A DNA stretch of 64,000 nucleotides from Bdellovibrionota bacterium (GTDB taxonomy: Bacteria > Bdellovibrionota_C > UBA2361 > CAKMMH01): contig JBMNLI010000012.1 of assembly GCA_050952645.1 (NCBI GenBank), positions 287,588 to 351,587 of the forward strand, in the 5' to 3' direction. The position numbers and the translations under genes were made by a program. Below are positions 8,481 through 63,911 of this stretch, piece by piece. Numbering within the stretch: the first letter of the stretch is position 1; each line of letters starts with the position of its first letter. The notes beneath the pieces are model-generated. The model had not been told where the DNA came from and did not search any database. It was given only the letters and a program-made list of their open reading frames with translations.

Positions 8481-8520
8481 AGCTTTTTTTTTTAGATGTT
8501 TTAACTATAAAAGAAACTAA

Positions 8521-8608
8521 TTCTTCACGTTTTAAGGTGATTTTAAGCTCTTAAAGTTAGCAAAAGTTAGCATAGTCTAGTCTTAGGAAGCCTTAAAACG
8601 TGAAGAAC
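8521..8608. repeat. MITE-like element, copy 1 (88 bp) with perfect 17-19 bp terminal inverted repeats TTCTTCACGTTTTAAGG(TG)
   Basis: Left end ttcttcacgttttaaggtg and right end ccttaaaacgtgaagaac are exact reverse complements. Related ends recur at 12524, 21153, 23283, 44657/44757 and 53334. Confidence 0.7.
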
Positions 8609-8988
8609 TAAAAAAAAACTTAAGAAAAAGACAAACTTACCTTAAAGCCTAAACTTTCTCTATATTTACGTATACTATGTTTTTTAAGAGCTTAAAACTT
8701 TAGCTTTGAGGCTAGTGTTTATCTTTCTTTAAGTGAATACGTATTTACGTCCGTTATTTTAATAATTTATGCGAGTGTTTCGTAACTTTTTTAAATTATT
8801 TTGAGTAGGTTCCCTAAATTCTCATTAAATTTTATACGTAAGACTAGGGAAAATTTGGGTTTTAAGCTTAAAATCTTTTAAAACATGCAAAACCCGTTTT
8901 TTTTAGAAGCATTTAGCCTACTAATAAAGATTATATATATAGGAAATTAAAGGTTTTTTATGTTTTTTTTATGGTAGGAGTAGTAAAT

Positions 8989-12523: not shown

Positions 12524-12742
12524 TCTTCACCGTTTTAAGTGGATTAAAGACCTTAAAATTAGTATCACGCACCCCACAAAGCCTAAAAGAAAATTGACTT
12601 TAAAGAAATTTGCATAAAATAAATTACTTTAAATATAGTTGTAATTTTTCTTTAAACTATAGCTAGTTTTTTACAAAAGCCAATTTTCTTTTAAGCTAAC
12701 CTAAAAAACAATTTTTCTAACCCACCCAAAACATGAAGAACC
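12524..12742. repeat. MITE-like element, copy 2 (~219 bp, full-length, uninterrupted; contains the empty group II intron target site at 12696/12697)
   Basis: Ends resemble the TIR of copy 1. About 120 bp of internal sequence is near-identical to 21225-21338, and the 3' part matches 23237-23283. Confidence 0.65.
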
Positions 12743-21152: not shown

Positions 21153-21338
21153 GTTAACTAAATTCTTCACGTTTTAAGGTGTTTTTAAATCCTAAAAAAT
21201 TAGCATCATCCACCCACAGAAGCCCAAAAGAAAATTGACTTTAAATGAATTTGCATAAAATAAATTACTTTTAATATAGCTGTAATTTTTTTTTGAAACT
21301 ATAGCTAGTTTTATATAAAAGTCAATTTTCTTTTAAGC
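21153..21338. repeat. MITE-like element, copy 3, 5' part (interrupted by the group II intron)
   Basis: Starts with TIR ttcttcacgttttaaggtg. 21225-21338 is near-identical to 12583-12696. Ends ...aattttcttttaagc immediately before the intron's GTGTG. Confidence 0.65.
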
Positions 21339-23236
21339 GTGTGCCGGGCACGACATAGTTCTAGCGGGTGAAAGTCCCGTCACGGGTAGTTGTCACCAAG
21401 TGTAGTGATGCCACAAGCTCGAAGCAGTAATGTTAGAGTGAAGGAAGTGGCGGATCAAAACCAAGGAGCCTACGAACAGAAACCAGATACAAGGCTAAAT
21501 GGTGGGTGAGGTTGCGCTACAAACCGAAGCCCTAAAGACAAACGTAAAACCAAACGAGTAAATCTGGAGGTTGTCTGGTGAAAGAACTATGCCTTACCCC
21601 GGGAGGTCCAGATAAGCGTGCTATGCACGTGCGATATAAAGCTTATATCTGGAAGTCAGTTGATACCATAGTACTTGAGACACCACTCAAGGAAGGGTTG
21701 AACGTTAATATATTGTGAATCACTGTAAGCAAGGCTAGAAGAGTCCGAAATTGAAGATATGCCTAACAAACAGGAACGTAACCTGTGGGGGCAGAAGATA
21801 GAGGGGGTGTTTTCTAGTAGCTTTACAAACAGAGGGAGGAGCAACAGGTGGAATTGATTGAACTGATTATATCAGACAAAAATATAGATGAGGCTATAAA
21901 GGCTGTTAAGCGAAATAAAGGTGCATCTGGTGTAGATGATATGCCAGTAGATGAGCTTGAAGACTATTTTGCCGTTCACAGAGAAGAGATAAAATCTCAG
22001 ATACGTGAAGGGAATTATAAGCCGAGTCCAGTTAAGAGAGTGTATATACCTAAAGCTAATGGTAAGATGAGACCTTTAGGAATACCTACAGTAGTAGATA
22101 GGGTAATTCAACAAGCGGTAGCGCAAATACTAGCACGCGGATACGAAAAAGTATTTTAGTAATAGTAGCTATGGCTTTAGACCTAGAAGGAATTGCCATC
22201 TAGCAGTATATAGAACTCTTGAGTACTTGAAAAGAGGCTATGATTGGGTTATAGACCTAGACATAGAGAAATATTTTGATACTGTTAATCACGACAAAAT
22301 TAATTTTCGATAATCAGGGAACGCATCAAAGATGCGAAGACACTACGATTGATAAGACAGTTCTTAAGAGCTGGTATAATGGAAGATGGATTGTTTACTG
22401 TAAGTGAGAAAGGAGTTCCGCAAGGAGGTCCATTATCCCCAGTATTATCTAACATATACCTTGATAAGCTCGACAAGGAACTGGAAGCAAGAGGACTTAA
22501 GTTTGTTAGATATGCCGATGACTGTAATATATTTGTTAGAAGTGAAAAGGCTGCTAATAGAGTAATGAAGTCCGTTGCGAGTTGGTTGGAGCGTAAGCTA
22601 CGACTTAAAATTAATTCAAGTAAGAGTAAAATCTCTAGGCCGACGGAAAGCACTTTCTTAGGCTTTACCTACTGGAAGAGTGGGTATAAAACTTGGAAAT
22701 GTAAACCTGCTGAAGATCGCAAACGAAAACTCTATGATAAAACTAGAGAAATTCTTTGTAGACGGAAGGCAATGGCACGAACGTTAGGTTCGACATTTCA
22801 ACAGCTAAGCTGGTTAATTAAAGGTTGGATAAACTATTATAAGATAGGAACTCTTAAGACTTTTATAGATAAATATGGTCAATGGCTTAGACACAAAGTG
22901 AGGGTTATAATACTTAAACAGTGGAAATTGCCGAGACGAATCTATCTAAATCTTAAGAAATTGAACCGAATGCTTGGTTGCAATTTTAGAAATGAAGAAA
23001 TCTATAAGGTTGCTAACAGCAGACTCGGCTGGTATAGACGCAGTTCGTGGTACGTAGTGAATTATGCATTAAGCCCTAAAATATTGGGGCGTAAAACAAA
23101 GGAACGAATTGGTTTAATCGACCCTTTGACGTATTACCTGAGTATTACTTGATATTATATTAATGGAGCGCCGTATACGAGACCCGTACGTACGGTGCGA
23201 CGGGAGGGAGAGGGTATAGCCCTCGCTCTACCCTAT
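21339..23236 (+). mobile_element. bacterial group II intron (~1.9 kb), En-minus type, inserted in MITE-like repeat copy 3
   Basis: 5' GTGTGCC... boundary. Domain V/VI-like hairpins near the 3' end (gagcgccgtatacgagacccgtacgtacggtgcgac; gggtatagccctcgctctaccctat with a bulged A). The encoded protein is RT plus maturase. The flanking sequence reconstitutes the uninterrupted repeat seen at 12524-12742. Confidence 0.75.
21848..23152 (+). pseudogene. group II intron-encoded reverse transcriptase/maturase, interrupted by two frameshifts (~22150 and ~22315); no endonuclease domain
   Basis: RT motifs 0-2 lie in ORF 21848..22159 (PLGIPTVVDRVIQQAV). RT3-4 sit in another frame (SYGFRPRRNCHLAV ... DLDIEKYFDTVNHDKI). 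RT5-7 and domain X lie in ORF 22349..23152 (GVPQGGPLSPVLSNIYL ... YADDCNIFV). Confidence 0.7.
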
Positions 23237-54624: not shown

Positions 54625-55509
54625 ATGACAGGAACTTTATATATTATAGCAACTCCCATTGGTAATTTAGGCGATATTTCTTATAGAGCAATTGAAACAT
54701 TAAAGCTAGTCGATATTATCGCTGCCGAAGATACTAGAAAATCTTTAATATTATTAAATAAATATAATATTAAAAAACCCGTTTTTTCAAACCACAAATT
54801 TAATGAAGCTAGTAAATTAAAATTTTTTATAGACAAGCTACTTTTAGGCGAAAATATAGGTTTAATATCCGATGCAGGGATGCCTTGCATTTCAGACCCT
54901 GGGTATATTTTAGTAAAAGAGGCGATAGAAAATAATATCGCTACTACTTGCGTGCCAGGTGCTAGTGCTAGCATTACTAGCGTTTCACTTTCAGGATTTG
55001 ATACATCATCTTTTTCTTTTCTAGGATTTCTTCCAAGAGACAAAAAAGGACTTTTAAATATATTTAATAAAATTTCATTAGACACTTTAAATAATGTTTT
55101 TATTTTTTACGAATCACCTAAAAGAATTATAAAAACTATTGAGTTTTTAAATAATGAATTTCCAAATTTTTCTCTTTGTCTTTGCAACGATCTAACAAAA
55201 AAGTTTGAAAAAATTTATAGAGGCTCACCTAGTAAGATTTTAAATGAACTTAAAGAAAATGAGGCTTTTGATAAAGGCGAATACGTTTTAGTTGTAAACA
55301 CGAATATAGTTAAAAATAAAAATAATAACATTATAAAAGACGCCCCTTTAACAAATACCTTATCGATAGAAGCTCTCTTAGTAGATTATCTTATAAAAAA
55401 TAAAAACGAAACTTTAAAAACTGCTATAAAAGAAGTGAACTCAAAATATAAAAATTTATCTAAAAATGAAATTTATAAAGCTTCCTTAAATTTAAAGAAT
55501 ATCCTTTAA
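54625..55509 (+). CDS. rsmI: 16S rRNA (cytidine1402-2'-O)-methyltransferase RsmI
   Basis: LYIIATPIGNLGDISYRAIETLKLVDIIAAEDTR is the tetrapyrrole-methylase-fold RsmI signature. Confidence 0.8.
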   Translation: MTGTLYIIATPIGNLGDISYRAIETLKLVDIIAAEDTRKSLILLNKYNIKKPVFSNHKFNEASKLKFFIDKLLLGENIGLISDAGMPCISDPGYILVKEAIENNIATTCVPGASASITSVSLSGFDTSSFSFLGFLPRDKKGLLNIFNKISLDTLNNVFIFYESPKRIIKTIEFLNNEFPNFSLCLCNDLTKKFEKIYRGSPSKILNELKENEAFDKGEYVLVVNTNIVKNKNNNIIKDAPLTNTLSIEALLVDYLIKNKNETLKTAIKEVNSKYKNLSKNEIYKASLNLKNIL

Positions 55510-58025
55510 ATTACGTTCTCATCTTCATCATCATATTCAGCGGCAAAAACCTCTCTTGGTTTTGCGCCGTCCATAGGACCGACTATCCCATTTCTTTCCA
55601 TCATATCTATTATTCTAGCTGCTCTATTATATCCAATTCTAAACACTCGTTGTATCATTGAAGTAGAAGCTTGACCTTTTTGAATTACATACTCTACAGC
55701 CTTATCATACAATTCATCCTTATCTTCATCTTCTTCTATCTCTTCCCCATCCCCTCCTTCCGAAAGTCGTTCACACATTTTTATTATCTGTTCATCGTAG
55801 TTAGGTTTAGCCTGTTTTTTAATGCTATTTATTACCTTTATAACCTCTGCATCTGAAACGAATGCACCGTGAGCCCTTATATTTGTGCCGCCAGGTTGCA
55901 TATAAAGCATATCTCCTTTTCCTAATAACTTTTCTGCACCGATAGTGTCAAGAATAGTTTTAGAATCGAAAATACTAGATACTCTAAATGAAATTCTTGC
56001 TGGAAAATTTGCTTTAATTAACCCAGTGATAACATCGACCGAGGGCCTTTGCGTAGCTAAAATCAAATGAATGCCAGCAGCACGTGCTTTTTGTGCTAGG
56101 CGTGTTATAGAGTCTTCTATTTCTTTTCCTACTGAAAACATTAAATCTGCAAGCTCATCTACCACTATAACTATTTTAGCTAGTGGCTTTATTTTTTCTC
56201 CCCTTGCATGATACTCATCTTCTTCTAATATATCGCTTTCAACGATTCCTTCTTCGATAACGTGTTCTTCCCTTAATTCTATATAATCTTTACTTTTAAA
56301 TTCTCTTATTGGATTTTCAAGTCTAGTCTCTCCTCTAGCTATAGCATTATAGCCATCGATATTTCTAACTCCATATTTATGCATTAACTTATAGCGTCTT
56401 TCCATTTCATCTATGGCCCAAAGAAAAACGGCTTGTGCTTGTTTAGCAGTAGTTACTACTGGAACTTTTAAGTGTGGAATGCCCTCATAGACGCTTAGCT
56501 CTAAAATCTTAGGATCGACTAAAATAAGTCCAAGCTCTGCTGGATTTGCCCTATATAGTAAGCTTATAAGTAGCGTATTGATAAAAACAGATTTTCCTGT
56601 TCCCGTAGCCCCAGCTATTAATAGATGTGGCATCGAGGCTATATCTGCAACCATCGCTCCGCCATATATATCTTTTCCAATAGGGACGGTTAAAATCGAT
56701 TTTGCGTTTACAAATTCTTCACTTTCTAAAATATCTCTTAACCTAACTAGATCTCTATTTTTATTTGGAACCTCTATTCCTACGGTTCCCTTTTTAGGAA
56801 TAGGAGCTATAATTCTTATAGAGCTAGCCTTTAACCCCATTGCTAAATCGCCGTGAAGTGAGGCTATTTTTCCTACCCTCACTCCAGGGGCAGGTTCAAA
56901 CTCGAAAAGTGTAATCACGGGACCTAAATGAACCTCTTTTACATGGCCTTGAATTCCAAAATCTCTTAATTTTCTTTCTATTATTCTAGATTTTTCTACT
57001 AGCTCATCATCGTCTTCCTCATGTAGTCCTTCGATAGTCGTTTTCTTTAGTAATGATAAACTAGGTGGCACGTAATTTATAAATTTTTCATCATCACACC
57101 AAGCCATAGAAACTTTTTGAGCACTTCTTATAGCCTTATCCACCTCTTTTATAGACTTTTCATTATCTCTAGCATTTCCTCTCTTTACTAATATTTCAAA
57201 ATCTTGAGATGCATCTTCCTCTTCTTCGTATTCTTCGTCATCATCATATTCTTTAGTAATTTTATTTCTTCTTCTTTTTGGTTTTGGTAGTTCTATTTCT
57301 TCTTCTAGTTCTTCTTTAGGATATAGAAATTTTACGTAATCTTTAATTGGATAAAATATTTTTTGAAAGACACTTAAAATAAATGCGTAAGCATAATATG
57401 GAAAGACTAAAAATAAATATTTAAATGATGTTTTTAAAAAATTAAAAGAAATTTTTACAAGCTCTGCAAAAGTATAATTAAGTGAAAATCCAGCTAGGAT
57501 AATACTAAAACAAAAAGTTAAAATTATAGAGCCAATTTCACCTATATATTTTGTAAGGAATCCACTTACGTTTTCTCCTATATCGCCTCCTGAGGTAGCG
57601 CCAAAGGTTAGCGATGTAAATGCTGCTAAGCAAACTATACTTAAAACTAAAGATATAAATCTTATTTCAAACTTATATTTAGGGGTTTCATCCTTCTTCT
57701 TGTTTTTTTTTGTCAATGTGTTTGCATTAAAATAGATAGCGACAACGAAGCATAAAACTATTGATAGAGATGACCAGCCTAGGCTTCCTCTTAGAAGAGT
57801 GCCTATAAATTGCCCTAAAGGCCCCATTAAATTTTTAGTTTTTTCATCAATTTCAAGTGGTTGCCAAGATACTATACTACAAACTAAAAAAATCGTTATT
57901 ATAGTCAAAATAAATATTAAAAACTCAATGCTAAAATTTTTTGTAGGAGCTTTTTCCTTATTTTTTATAGATGTTTTAACCCCTTGGCTTTTTTCTCTAC
58001 TTGTCGACCTTCTTTTTTTTGCCAT
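55506..58025 (-). CDS. ftsK: DNA translocase FtsK
   Basis: N-terminal TM helices. Motor domain with Walker A (GATGTGKS). C-terminal gamma winged-helix domain (TSMIQRVFRIGYNRAARIID). Confidence 0.9.
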   Translation of the reverse strand: MAKKRRSTSREKSQGVKTSIKNKEKAPTKNFSIEFLIFILTIITIFLVCSIVSWQPLEIDEKTKNLMGPLGQFIGTLLRGSLGWSSLSIVLCFVVAIYFNANTLTKKNKKKDETPKYKFEIRFISLVLSIVCLAAFTSLTFGATSGGDIGENVSGFLTKYIGEIGSIILTFCFSIILAGFSLNYTFAELVKISFNFLKTSFKYLFLVFPYYAYAFILSVFQKIFYPIKDYVKFLYPKEELEEEIELPKPKRRRNKITKEYDDDEEYEEEEDASQDFEILVKRGNARDNEKSIKEVDKAIRSAQKVSMAWCDDEKFINYVPPSLSLLKKTTIEGLHEEDDDELVEKSRIIERKLRDFGIQGHVKEVHLGPVITLFEFEPAPGVRVGKIASLHGDLAMGLKASSIRIIAPIPKKGTVGIEVPNKNRDLVRLRDILESEEFVNAKSILTVPIGKDIYGGAMVADIASMPHLLIAGATGTGKSVFINTLLISLLYRANPAELGLILVDPKILELSVYEGIPHLKVPVVTTAKQAQAVFLWAIDEMERRYKLMHKYGVRNIDGYNAIARGETRLENPIREFKSKDYIELREEHVIEEGIVESDILEEDEYHARGEKIKPLAKIVIVVDELADLMFSVGKEIEDSITRLAQKARAAGIHLILATQRPSVDVITGLIKANFPARISFRVSSIFDSKTILDTIGAEKLLGKGDMLYMQPGGTNIRAHGAFVSDAEVIKVINSIKKQAKPNYDEQIIKMCERLSEGGDGEEIEEDEDKDELYDKAVEYVIQKGQASTSMIQRVFRIGYNRAARIIDMMERNGIVGPMDGAKPREVFAAEYDDEDENVI

Positions 58026-58217
58026 ATATTGCTATTTCCCAACAAACTAAAAAGACTTTAATTTTTATAACTAAGATCTTTAGTTGTTATAATAAATCAA
58101 GTATAAAAACATTAAAAGACCTTAAAATTAATTTATAAAATAATAAAAAAAAACTTACTTTACCTATTGATTTATATGTTAATTATAGGTTAGATATTTA
58201 TATGTGAAAAATGCTTT

Positions 58218-58305
58218 GGAGTTCTTTCACAACTGATTGTATAAATAAATTATATATAAAATTTTAAATATGAACTAAATATGAAATTTGTTGTGAAAGA
58301 ACTCC
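58218..58305. promoter_or_regulatory. 16-bp perfect inverted repeat (ggagttctttcacaac / gttgtgaaagaactcc) bracketing an AT-rich, -10-like 56-bp spacer upstream of the acidic-protein gene
   Basis: Arms at 58218-58233 and 58290-58305. The spacer contains tataaat/tatatat. The RBS AAGGAG lies at ~58352. Confidence 0.5.
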
Positions 58306-58372
58306 GATATAGTTTGAAGTTTAAAACTATATTATTGATTATTATATTTTTAATTTTAAGGAGAATTGTAAA

Positions 58373-58882
58373 ATGGCATCAAGTGCAAATGATAAATTAG
58401 TTTCAGCGTTATCACAATTAGCGGAAGCATACGCAGAACTGCAAGAAGAGTTAGAAGAAAGACTAACTACTAAGGACAATGAGGAAGAAGAAGATTTCGA
58501 TAGTCAAGAAATAGATGATGAAGATGCATTAGCCGAGGAAGTTGATGCAGCGATGATTGCTGAGTTAAAATTAGCTATCGATAGCGTTATAGACACTGAC
58601 GATGTAGCAACAGAGGAATTTGCGGTGATTTTTTCAGCTCTAGTTGATGCATTAGAAGAAATAGATCCTGATTGTTTTTCAGACATGGAGCTCATCAACG
58701 AATATGAAAGAAGCGGTGGTGCTTCTATCGAGTTAAACGATTATGACGATAGTGATGATGAGGACTACGACGAAGATGATGATGATGATTATGACGCTTG
58801 GGGCGATGATGATGACGATGATGACTACGATGAAGACTATGATGATTGGGATGATGATGACGACGACGATGATGAAAGATAA
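58373..58882 (+). CDS. extremely acidic protein (169 aa; C-terminal Asp/Glu/Tyr/Trp-rich tail), unknown function
   Basis: Strong SD (taaggag). N-terminal helical region. Tail DYDEDDDDDYDAWGDDDDDDDYDEDYDDWDDDDDDDDER. GC-richer than its surroundings. Confidence 0.55.
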   Translation: MASSANDKLVSALSQLAEAYAELQEELEERLTTKDNEEEEDFDSQEIDDEDALAEEVDAAMIAELKLAIDSVIDTDDVATEEFAVIFSALVDALEEIDPDCFSDMELINEYERSGGASIELNDYDDSDDEDYDEDDDDDYDAWGDDDDDDDYDEDYDDWDDDDDDDDER

Positions 58883-59070
58883 AAAATAAAAAATATTTTT
58901 TAGTGCTTTTTATCAAAGACAATCATTAAATAATCGTTAAATTATAATCATTAAAAGTAGAGTTCTTTTTAAGATTTTAAAATTAAAAAGAACTCTTTTT
59001 TTTTTCTTAAACTTTTTTCTTAAAGTTTTTTCTTTAAATCAATCTTTCTTATATATTTTTTTATATTTCT

Positions 59071-62410: not shown

Positions 62411-62809
62411 ATGTTAACGAATATAAAATCAATATATGAAAAATGCGGAAGATACCTAGGGGCGATGAAGGTAGCTCCTACTAAAAAGCAGATGCAAATC
62501 TGCCTTTTTATCTTTGGTATCGTTCTATTAACTACTGGATTAGGATTAGAAGCTATGGCTCAGGCAAGGGCATTAGGTGGCACTATTGATGCGAGCCGAA
62601 TAAATTCAGCTTCAGATGCGTTAATGATGGCTATTAGAGGACCTTTTGGAGCTTTAATAATGATTATCGCTGGACTTTTTGCGATAGTAATGGCCGCAAT
62701 GGGACAATATAAAATTGCTATGTCGCTCCTAGTTATCTCACTAGGGTCGTTTATCTTGCGTTCAATAATAATTACATTCTTTAACGCAGATAACCTAATT
62801 AACGTGTAA
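62411..62809 (+). CDS. small membrane protein with a long signal peptide ending AMAQA and two hydrophobic helices (VirB2/TrbC pilin-like architecture, tentative)
   Basis: Domain layout only; ~38% GC. No sequence signature confirmed. Confidence 0.3.
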   Translation: MLTNIKSIYEKCGRYLGAMKVAPTKKQMQICLFIFGIVLLTTGLGLEAMAQARALGGTIDASRINSASDALMMAIRGPFGALIMIIAGLFAIVMAAMGQYKIAMSLLVISLGSFILRSIIITFFNADNLINV

Positions 62810-62993: not shown

Positions 62994-63911
62994 TTACTTT
63001 TCTAACATTTCTTCGACTTCTCCTTCTCTTTTAATTTCGATAATTTTTTTCATTCCATCTTTTCCAAGCTTTCCTAATAGTTCTTTAAATATTCCATTTA
63101 CTTTTATAAGTTTCTTAAGAGATGGAGAGAGAGATATTAAAAATTCGCTAAGTTCATTTTTCTTTTCTTCTAATTCGTCTTGATGACAAAAAAGGATTTG
63201 TAAAAGTAAAAGCGTTAAAAACATTCTAGTTTCGTAAATTCTTAATTTTAAAAGTTTTTGAAACGCTTTCTTTTTATTTAGCTTTCTAAATCGATTAAAT
63301 CTTTTCTTGTATAAAAGATTAAACACATCTTTTAAATTATTTTTGTCTATTTTTACATTTTCTCCTACTAATCTTTTTTTAATATCATCACTTAAATTTA
63401 TATTTAACTTATTAAACATTATTAGTAAATTTATAGTTTCAATCGTATTTCTTAAAATAAGCTTTCTATCAAACCCTATATCACTATTTCTAGTCCTTAA
63501 ATTTTTATTATTATTTTTTGTTTTAATCTTATTTATATACTTTATTAAACTTTCATTTTCTATTGAAACGTTAGAAAATATAGTTTCTATTAGTTTTATT
63601 TCATTATTTGTAAAATCGCTAATTACACTTTTACTAGAATTATCACTTAAGCTTTCACTTAGTAAATAATCGGCGCTATCAAGCCCTAAAGCGACGCTTT
63701 CTTTAATATTTTCGCTAGGGTTAATATTACTTAAATTATAATCTCTATTATTATCGCTTAAATGCGTCGTTAAGTTAAAGTTATTATCTATATTTTCAGT
63801 TAAATTATTAGTAGTAATATTATTAGTGTTAAAACTAGTGCTTTCATTTGGCGTAGCAAGAAAATCTTCAACTCTAACTTTGTTAGGAGCATTTAGTTTA
63901 TTTTGTATCAC
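62994..63911 (-). CDS. hypothetical Asn/Lys-rich protein (305 aa)
   Basis: Intact ORF. No domain recognised. Confidence 0.35.
   Translation of the reverse strand: MIQNKLNAPNKVRVEDFLATPNESTSFNTNNITTNNLTENIDNNFNLTTHLSDNNRDYNLSNINPSENIKESVALGLDSADYLLSESLSDNSSKSVISDFTNNEIKLIETIFSNVSIENESLIKYINKIKTKNNNKNLRTRNSDIGFDRKLILRNTIETINLLIMFNKLNINLSDDIKKRLVGENVKIDKNNLKDVFNLLYKKRFNRFRKLNKKKAFQKLLKLRIYETRMFLTLLLLQILFCHQDELEEKKNELSEFLISLSPSLKKLIKVNGIFKELLGKLGKDGMKKIIEIKREGEVEEMLEK

Follow-up and report, generated by a model that had tools for sequence, protein, structure and literature searches.

The delta subunit of RNA polymerase (RNAP) couples a folded N-terminal domain (residues 1–90) to a disordered acidic C-terminal region (residues 91–173, net charge −47) that serves as a nucleic-acid mimic on RNAP (PMC7749165). 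Acidic histone-chaperone domains grip basic histone surfaces with poly-Asp/Glu stretches that carry aromatic anchors (PMC9328677), and nucleoplasmin is reported to have, in addition, a basic C-terminal segment able to fold back onto its acidic stretch (PMC5738438). Small acidic DNA mimics such as DMP19 and DMP12 of Neisseria and those of the HI1450 type, which are encoded on the chromosome and bind HU or transcription factors, are reported to regulate nucleoid proteins through occupation of the DNA-binding site (PMC3643605, PMC5722371 and PMC3384305). Here we describe a gene for a hyper-acidic, 169-residue protein in a 64,000-nucleotide stretch of the genome of a Bdellovibrionota bacterium (contig JBMNLI010000012.1, positions 287,588 to 351,587; the whole stretch is hereafter referred to as the window). 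The protein belongs to a family that is undescribed, and membership fails for each of the named families with which it was compared. By analogy with the systems above, the protein is most reasonably classed, by function, as a nucleic-acid-like polyanion. We propose that the family acts as a conserved polyanion competitor or chaperone with a helical domain and that, in this genome, a recently added inverted repeat forms a hairpin in the leader of its transcript; taken as a whole, this explanation is tentative, and we would place it slightly short of an even chance.

The gene and its ribosome-binding site lie as follows.

58373 to 58882 (stop codon included), plus strand: gene for the hyper-acidic protein, from the listing of open reading frames; 169 amino acids.
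58358 to 58363, plus strand: Shine–Dalgarno sequence AAGGAG, 9 nt ahead of the ATG.

The open reading frame (ORF) begins with an ATG at 58373 and comprises 169 codons, followed by a stop codon that ends at 58882. Its product contains 75 acidic residues (Asp plus Glu) and 6 basic residues (Lys plus Arg), which gives a net charge of −69 and a pI of about 4.05. Acidic residues make up 77% of the last 39 positions (residues 131–169), accompanied by six Tyr or Trp residues. The original prediction, read from the DNA letters, had described a 169-residue hyper-acidic protein with a strong Shine–Dalgarno sequence, a helical N-terminal half, an 80% Asp/Glu tail with Tyr and Trp, and a GC content above background; all of these features are borne out, the tail figure being about right. 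The Shine–Dalgarno sequence lies in a block, TTTAAGGAGAATTG (58355–58368), that is identical at 14 of 14 positions in a related scaffold, L002. The GC content of the ORF is 39.4%, compared with 31.0% for the window. Because its GC content at third codon positions is just 28% and the neighbouring genes stand at 34–37%, this excess is not a signal of foreign DNA; it comes mostly from the first-position G of GAY and GAR codons. The DNA that encodes the tail is a low-complexity GAT/GAC repeat, and slippage in this repeat may have shaped the tail of the window protein. Long ORFs in other frames of the repeat (58725–58922, minus strand, and 58743–58889, plus strand) encode His/Arg-rich and Met/Thr-rich products and are by-products of the repeat rather than genes.

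The window protein is identical to ACOX3T_05670, a hypothetical protein of a Bdellovibrionota metagenome-assembled genome (MAG), and the same organism has been assembled independently in Logan (L037), with no difference from the window across 12.5 kb. In an exhaustive hidden Markov model search of 1.84 billion representative proteins, a profile built on the N-terminal region matched 60 clusters, 26 of them with E < 1e-10. With a 32-sequence profile, a word-indexed search matched 145 proteins, none of which has any Pfam domain on record, so that the homologues number at least 145. Most of these proteins are unnamed in their source databases, and those that carry a name are mainly 'hypothetical', with a few mis-annotations that follow composition (RNase E and ScpB). 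The homologues come from genomes that span about 30–59% GC. Searches of Pfam, NCBIfam and PHROGs with the window protein gave no consistent match, nor did Pfam and PHROG scans across 36 family members. Sequence and profile searches of the PDB found no match below E = 0.08, and fold comparison against the PDB and viral models found none.

Substitution patterns indicate that the protein is maintained by selection. In comparison with L001, the closest relative at about 80% identity, the ratio of nonsynonymous to synonymous rates (dN/dS) is 0.11 overall, 0.04–0.07 on the helices described below and about 1 in the acidic linker, at a dS of about 1. Purifying selection on the helices is thus strong, while in the acidic segments it is composition and not sequence that has been kept. 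To judge from the sequences compared, the ORF is a true, conserved and expressed-looking gene of an unnamed, lineage-restricted family. Two apparently short isoforms, P0003 and P0004, were rejected as truncated or chimeric artefacts and set aside. In the scaffold L002, an N gap and foreign sequence interrupt the acidic gene (L002 867–1030), and L003 is a 532-nt GC-rich contig in which the ORF ends in unrelated sequence.

The protein is divided into two parts, with a short signature close to their junction.

58373 to 58711, plus strand: N-terminal helical domain, residues 1–113, with helices at residues 2–36, 47–74, 80–97 and 103–113 and an acidic linker at residues 37–46.
58649 to 58678, plus strand: family signature ALEEIDPDCF, residues 93–102, at the junction of helices 3 and 4.
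58712 to 58879, plus strand: poly-Asp/Glu tail with Tyr/Trp anchors, residues 114–169, predicted to be disordered and built from GAT/GAC codons.

AlphaFold2, run with a 36-sequence alignment, predicts the four helices at a local confidence score (pLDDT) of 80–96 and arranges them as a hairpin or bundle that is wholly helical and lacks beta strands. In the same prediction the tail has pLDDT values of 46–62 and no secondary structure. Within the signature, L94 and P99 are invariant, and E96, I97 and F102 are conserved at 90% or more in both alignments examined (A3 and A4), with D98 reaching that level in A3 only. An ALEEIDPxVF motif was considered as a mimic of the SSB tail or of the FtsZ C-terminal peptide and rejected: it fits neither consensus and sits at a predicted helix–turn–helix junction.

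Across 155 family members the median length is 145 residues and the median net charge −60, with a tail of about 49 residues that is 78% Asp/Glu. Tyr is the commonest non-acidic residue of the tails, and an aromatic residue flanked by acidic residues occurs in 134 of 153 tails. Trp is rare, being present in only three of the 153 tails, the window protein among them. The embedded residues (Tyr, Phe, Trp, Leu and Ile) recur at preferred spacings: pairs of hydrophobic residues at i+2 number 155 against 84.5 expected, and those at i+5 number 120 against 50.6, counts which, coming from related sequences, measure conservation of a pattern rather than independent enrichment. A short basic C-terminus (such as KRK or RRKKRR) is found in 18 of the 155 members (about 12%). 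For the idea that members with such a terminus might be secreted effectors, supporting evidence was not found.

Among described systems, RNAP delta (RpoE of Firmicutes) is similar in size class and in its two-part design, here a helical domain of about 113 residues followed by a 56-residue tail, at a net charge of −69; the long acidic C-terminal region predicted to be disordered is also shared. In the tail of Bacillus subtilis delta, hydrophobic and acidic residues alternate in 'LDLD' patches, which resemble the 'IDLD/YDYD' patches of the present family. Unlike delta, however, the family matches neither HARE-HTH nor any other Pfam domain, its predicted fold is all-helical and it occurs in a Gram-negative Bdellovibrionota clade; a link to RNAP would be by analogy. 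The acidic domains of histone chaperones (the nucleoplasmin tail and APLF) share with it an acidic disordered stretch that carries conserved aromatics, and the basic ends of about one family member in eight recall the basic C-terminal segment of nucleoplasmin. The nucleoplasmin core, by contrast, is a beta-sandwich, and there is no sequence or fold relationship to the helical domain. Proteins of the DMP19, DMP12 and HI1450 type are likewise small, very acidic and chromosomally encoded, but they are compact and folded with a rigid array of charges, whereas here most of the charge lies in a tail predicted to be disordered and no solved structure matches. The Escherichia coli proteins RraB (YjgD) and MsyB are also small and cytoplasmic with a pI below 4, although the family has no Pfam match to either. 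The target of RraB is RNase E, whose basic C-terminal region it binds, and automatic annotation by the Joint Genome Institute (JGI) has given some members of the present family the name 'ribonuclease E', evidently from the composition of their tails.

We infer from this architecture a mechanism in which a cytoplasmic two-part protein would use its helical N-terminal domain for docking or oligomerization, and this domain would supply specificity. The disordered Asp/Glu tail would act as a flexible, nucleic-acid-like polyanion that occupies the basic surface by which a partner binds DNA or RNA, with the aromatics as anchors. Candidate basic partners would include a nucleoid protein, a histone, HU or RNA polymerase, and the protein would behave as a competitor or chaperone in the manner of RNAP delta or of acidic histone-chaperone tails.

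The genomic setting of the family was surveyed with one genome per GTDB species and one strict motif, which yielded 33 loci (L004–L036). All 33 belong to MAGs of uncultured bacteria. The labels Bdellovibrionota, Bdellovibrionales and Oligoflexia cover about half of them, and most of the remainder go by 'Deltaproteobacteria', 'Proteobacteria/Pseudomonadota' or 'bacterium', with one labelled Dadabacteria. No label of a cultured species (for example, Bdellovibrio bacteriovorus) appears among the named hits or the 33 loci, although most hits carry no organism label and the survey used a single motif, so that absence from cultured species is not established. In every one of the 33 loci a gene for a lipoprotein-like protein of about 231 residues (a signal peptide followed by Cys, with no Pfam match) lies immediately upstream on the opposite strand (for example, L026 3830–4498 and L005 3987–4667, both on the minus strand). 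In the GC-richer relatives this gene always stands between ftsK and the acidic gene; ftsK follows beyond it in 29–30 of the 33 loci, the others being cut by contig ends. Downstream genes are variable, with a convergent pair of genes of about 413 codons, which from their sequence we take to encode M16-type peptidases, in 24 loci.

The window and its AT-rich relative L002 have both lost the lipoprotein-like gene, of which no trace was found within the 64 kb. As a result, ftsK faces the acidic gene directly across 347 nt.

55506 to 58025, minus strand: ftsK; FtsK Pfam domains are recorded for the identical gene of L037.

Other neighbours in the window are an rsmI-like methylase gene and the genes for S-adenosylhomocysteine hydrolase (ahcY) and an HtrA-type protease (htrA). 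Searches of 50,697 phage records and 72,556 plasmid records (by tblastn) and of IMG/VR found no relative of the family. On this comparative evidence the gene belongs to the chromosome and is inherited vertically, rather than being carried as cargo by a mobile element. Further along the window, a 132-residue protein with two transmembrane segments (62411–62809, plus strand) resembles TrbC/VirB2 pilins only weakly and below threshold (E = 0.13), and neither the 305-residue ORF next to it (62994–63911) nor several small ORFs at 26.4–29.4 kb have a Pfam match.

Three other readings of the protein were weighed against that of a polyanion competitor. The one that survives best, though we consider it unlikely, is a calsequestrin-like buffer whose tail stores Ca2+, Mg2+ or polyamines without a specific protein partner. 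The composition of the window protein fits this role, which the original prediction had also named: it and its nearest relative are unusually rich in Asp, which accounts for about 80% of the acidic tail residues and, in the window, forms runs of seven to eight. Family-wide, however, Asp and Glu are interchangeable (the median of D/(D+E) is 0.54), which argues against a defined metal geometry, and an ion sink would need neither the conserved, non-randomly spaced aromatic and hydrophobic residues of the tails nor the conserved folded domain. A far weaker case can be made for a DNA mimic of the Ocr or ArdA type that shields incoming DNA from restriction enzymes, an example the original prediction had offered. 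Extreme acidity and small size speak for it, acidity being the only likeness to Ocr and ArdA. Against it stand the fixed place of the gene beside ftsK, a core-chromosomal synteny shared by all 33 loci, the housekeeping genes on its flanks, the lack of homology to Ocr and ArdA or of any Pfam or PHROG match, and an acidic part predicted to be disordered in place of a rigid surface shaped like B-DNA; since no relative occurs in the phage, plasmid or IMG/VR collections, we regard an anti-restriction role as highly improbable. That the ORF is a spurious frame opened by the GAT/GAC trinucleotide repeat, as the low complexity of the tail DNA and the long ORFs in its other frames might suggest, is refuted by the non-repetitive N-terminal 113 residues, which are conserved in at least 145 proteins under strong purifying selection, and by the conserved Shine–Dalgarno sequence.

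The intergenic region provides a separate view of how the gene may be controlled. L002, the nearest relative, with a protein about 80% identical, has the same arrangement of ftsK and the acidic gene, with an intergenic distance of 359 nt. Only three blocks of this region are conserved between the two genomes, at 58159–58192, at 58087–58120 and around the Shine–Dalgarno sequence; given that synonymous sites are saturated between the genomes (dS about 1), these blocks are under constraint.

58159 to 58192 (L002 435–468), no strand assigned: most conserved intergenic block, identical to L002 at 33 of 34 positions.
58064 to 58093, plus strand: best promoter-like site of this strand, TTTATA-18-TATAAT with an upstream TG, identified by consensus match only.
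58953 to 59005, plus strand: hairpin resembling an intrinsic terminator, with a 14-bp stem followed by a T-run (−16.4 kcal/mol, z = −3.4).

Within the block at 58159–58192 lie ACCTAT-N17-ATAGGT, which occurs nowhere else in the window and is expected 0 times by chance, and a direct repeat of ATTTATATGT. The block is overlapped by a promoter-like site on the minus strand (TTTTCA-17-TATAAT, 58210 to 58182) and is a likely shared regulatory site for the divergent promoters of ftsK and the acidic gene. On the plus strand, the −10 hexamer TATAAT of the site at 58064–58093 lies in the conserved block 58087–58120, and its counterpart in L002 reads TTTACA-18-TATAAT. Promoter-like sites as a class are not significantly enriched in the AT-rich intergenic region (12 found versus 7.6 ± 3.1 expected). 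With its promoter-like blocks, long leader, Shine–Dalgarno sequence, ORF and terminator, the acidic gene looks like a monocistronic unit, which would be transcribed divergently from ftsK.

Between the conserved block and the Shine–Dalgarno sequence lies an inverted repeat.

58218 to 58233, plus strand: left arm of a perfect 16-bp inverted repeat, GGAGTTCTTTCACAAC.
58290 to 58305, plus strand: right arm, the exact reverse complement of GGAGTTCTTTCACAAC, separated from the left arm by a 56-nt spacer.
58217 to 58306, no strand assigned: whole imperfect palindrome, predicted to form a hairpin of about 90 nt (RNA fold −32.7 kcal/mol, z = −7.9).
58306 to 58333, plus strand: second, adjoining 10-bp hairpin, GATATAGTTT...AAACTATATT, in the minimum-free-energy fold of 58205–58380.

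The arms and spacer are thus as originally reported, and complementarity extends inward from the perfect arms to give an imperfect 88-bp palindrome, whose arms of 44–47 nt are 77–79% complementary. Perfect spaced inverted repeats of at least 16 bp with a spacer of at most 100 nt are expected 0.035 times per window (200 composition-preserving shuffles), and three such loci are seen, at 8521, 21226 and 58218. No further copy of the arm occurs in the window at up to three mismatches, and the arm pair has no match in JGI metagenome contigs or in IMG/VR; the ends of a many-copy mobile element, which the original prediction had held to be what would undo its reading of the repeat, were therefore not found in these collections. 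The other sign that it had named against itself, an ORF lacking conservation, was not seen either, as the family is clearly conserved. No target-site duplication is present at the repeat (the flanks read ...GCTTT before the left arm and GATAT... after the right), and Rfam scans of the leader, ORF and terminator gave nothing credible, only sub-threshold small nucleolar RNA noise in the GAT repeat. A 9-mer, GAGTTCTTT, forms the outer part of both arms (58219–58227 and 58296–58304) and of the terminator stem (58960–58968 and 58987–58995), so that four of its five occurrences in the window, where 1.5 are expected, fall at the acidic-gene locus. The two hairpins may have this 9-mer in common by chance, or because both arose from one source.

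The repeat is confined to this genome among those compared. It is not conserved in L002, where the matching segment has no unusual fold (z = −0.9), and none of the other 32 family loci has a perfect repeat longer than 10 bp in the 350 nt upstream of the gene. A structured leader was tested as a family trait and rejected, as the folding energy of the window leader alone stands out (z = −6.0, the next best being −3.3). Closer relatives were not found in JGI metagenomes, and the origin of the repeat can for this reason be dated only to after the split from L002. As far as these comparisons reach, the repeat is a recent, genome-specific addition that lies outside the conserved regulation of the family. 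It is most likely a lineage-specific 5′-leader hairpin or a palindromic insertion and not a conserved operator.

Of these, the long 5′ hairpin in the transcript, which the original prediction had named as an alternative, is our preferred reading. The conserved −10 hexamer suggests a transcription start near 58100; from such a start the repeat would be transcribed, and the mRNA would carry an almost fully paired hairpin of about 90 nt in its leader. Such a hairpin could affect the stability or processing of the mRNA, through stabilization of the 5′ end or through cleavage by RNase III.

The alternative that the repeat is a selfish palindromic insertion without a regulatory role, similar to miniature inverted-repeat transposable elements (MITEs) or repetitive extragenic palindromes (REPs), is a serious one, to which we give roughly one chance in three. 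It would account for the restriction of the repeat to a single lineage and for its perfect 16-bp terminal arms, and the window holds other long spaced palindromes far above chance, including a repeated element of about 125 bp and a hairpin at 8518–8610, which indicate that this genome is prone to acquiring such elements. What tells against it is that the arm pair is single in the window and absent from the IMG/VR and JGI contigs, that no direct duplication flanks it and that the palindrome shows no homology to the others in the window.

The original prediction had also offered a geometry in which a promoter is bracketed by the arms. A dimeric or tetrameric repressor bound to both arms of this bipartite operator (72 bp centre to centre) would loop out or occlude a promoter in the AT-rich spacer. 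In addition to the perfect arms, there is a promoter-like sequence, TTCACA-16-AATTAT (58226–58253), whose −35 hexamer falls within the left arm and whose −10 hexamer falls in the spacer; were this the promoter, the repeat would act at the level of DNA. As a general mechanism, however, the proposal is not supported: the repeat is missing from L002 and from all other family loci, and no arm copy is found at any other promoter of the window. The nearest relative, which lacks the repeat, keeps instead the different block at 58159–58192 with its own 6-bp half-sites, and the spacer is largely self-complementary, as would be expected of a hairpin or palindromic element but is needless for a pair of operators. 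A bipartite operator is accordingly improbable for this locus, and the block at 58159–58192 is the better operator candidate by its conservation.

The other palindromes of the window are of more than one kind. A MITE-like element of about 125 bp is present in two copies (12575–12702 and 21212–21348) that are about 88% identical, have terminal inverted repeats of about 22 nt (AAAAGAAAATTGACTTT...) and are each predicted to form a long hairpin (z = −4.8 and −5.3). About 75 nt beyond the end of the second copy lies a group II intron (21421–23236), identified by the Rfam matches RF02001 (21421–21592) and RF00029 (23166–23236). The reverse transcriptase (RT)/maturase ORF of this intron appears broken, with only the C-terminal half of the RT domain and the maturase domain retained (22349–23152), and the intron is probably degenerate. 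The palindrome at 8518–8610 has 20-nt arms (95% complementary) and a 53-nt spacer, folds as RNA at −35.6 kcal/mol (z = −6.3) and sits 38 nt past the stop codon of a 1,205-residue ORF without a Pfam match. A relationship between this palindrome and the one at 58 kb, both of which have AGTTCTT..CAC near the ends of their arms, was considered and rejected, as alignment did not support it and the motif is only weakly enriched.

The inverted repeat by itself is of local interest only; the wider meaning of the locus lies in the protein family. A nucleoid partner is attractive because histones rank among the major chromatin proteins of Bdellovibrionota (PMC10627809). No histone fold was found in the small ORFs of the window that were scanned. 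By analogy, the family might be a bacterial counterpart of the eukaryotic acidic chaperones or of Firmicute RNAP delta, here in a Gram-negative lineage. As a dedicated polyanion it would stand in for nucleic acid in the loading, removal or storage of a basic chromatin protein (a histone or HU) or in the recycling of RNAP, and its expression, divergent from that of the ftsK chromosome-segregation operon, might be coordinated with it; we offer this more specific idea as speculation and rate it as unlikely. If the polyanion mechanism is correct, a lineage of Bdellovibrionota would manage a basic nucleic-acid-binding protein by means of a dedicated disordered polyanion with aromatic anchors, a design documented so far mainly in eukaryotic histone chaperones and Firmicute RNA polymerase delta. 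A conserved chaperone-like partner would then provide a handle on the assembly and remodelling of histone-based chromatin in bacteria. Regardless of any link to chromatin, the family is a compact example of a folded anchor joined to a super-charged tail, with a net charge of about −60 in about 145 residues, and its distribution across genomes of about 30–59% GC makes it useful for studying selection on composition versus sequence in disordered regions.

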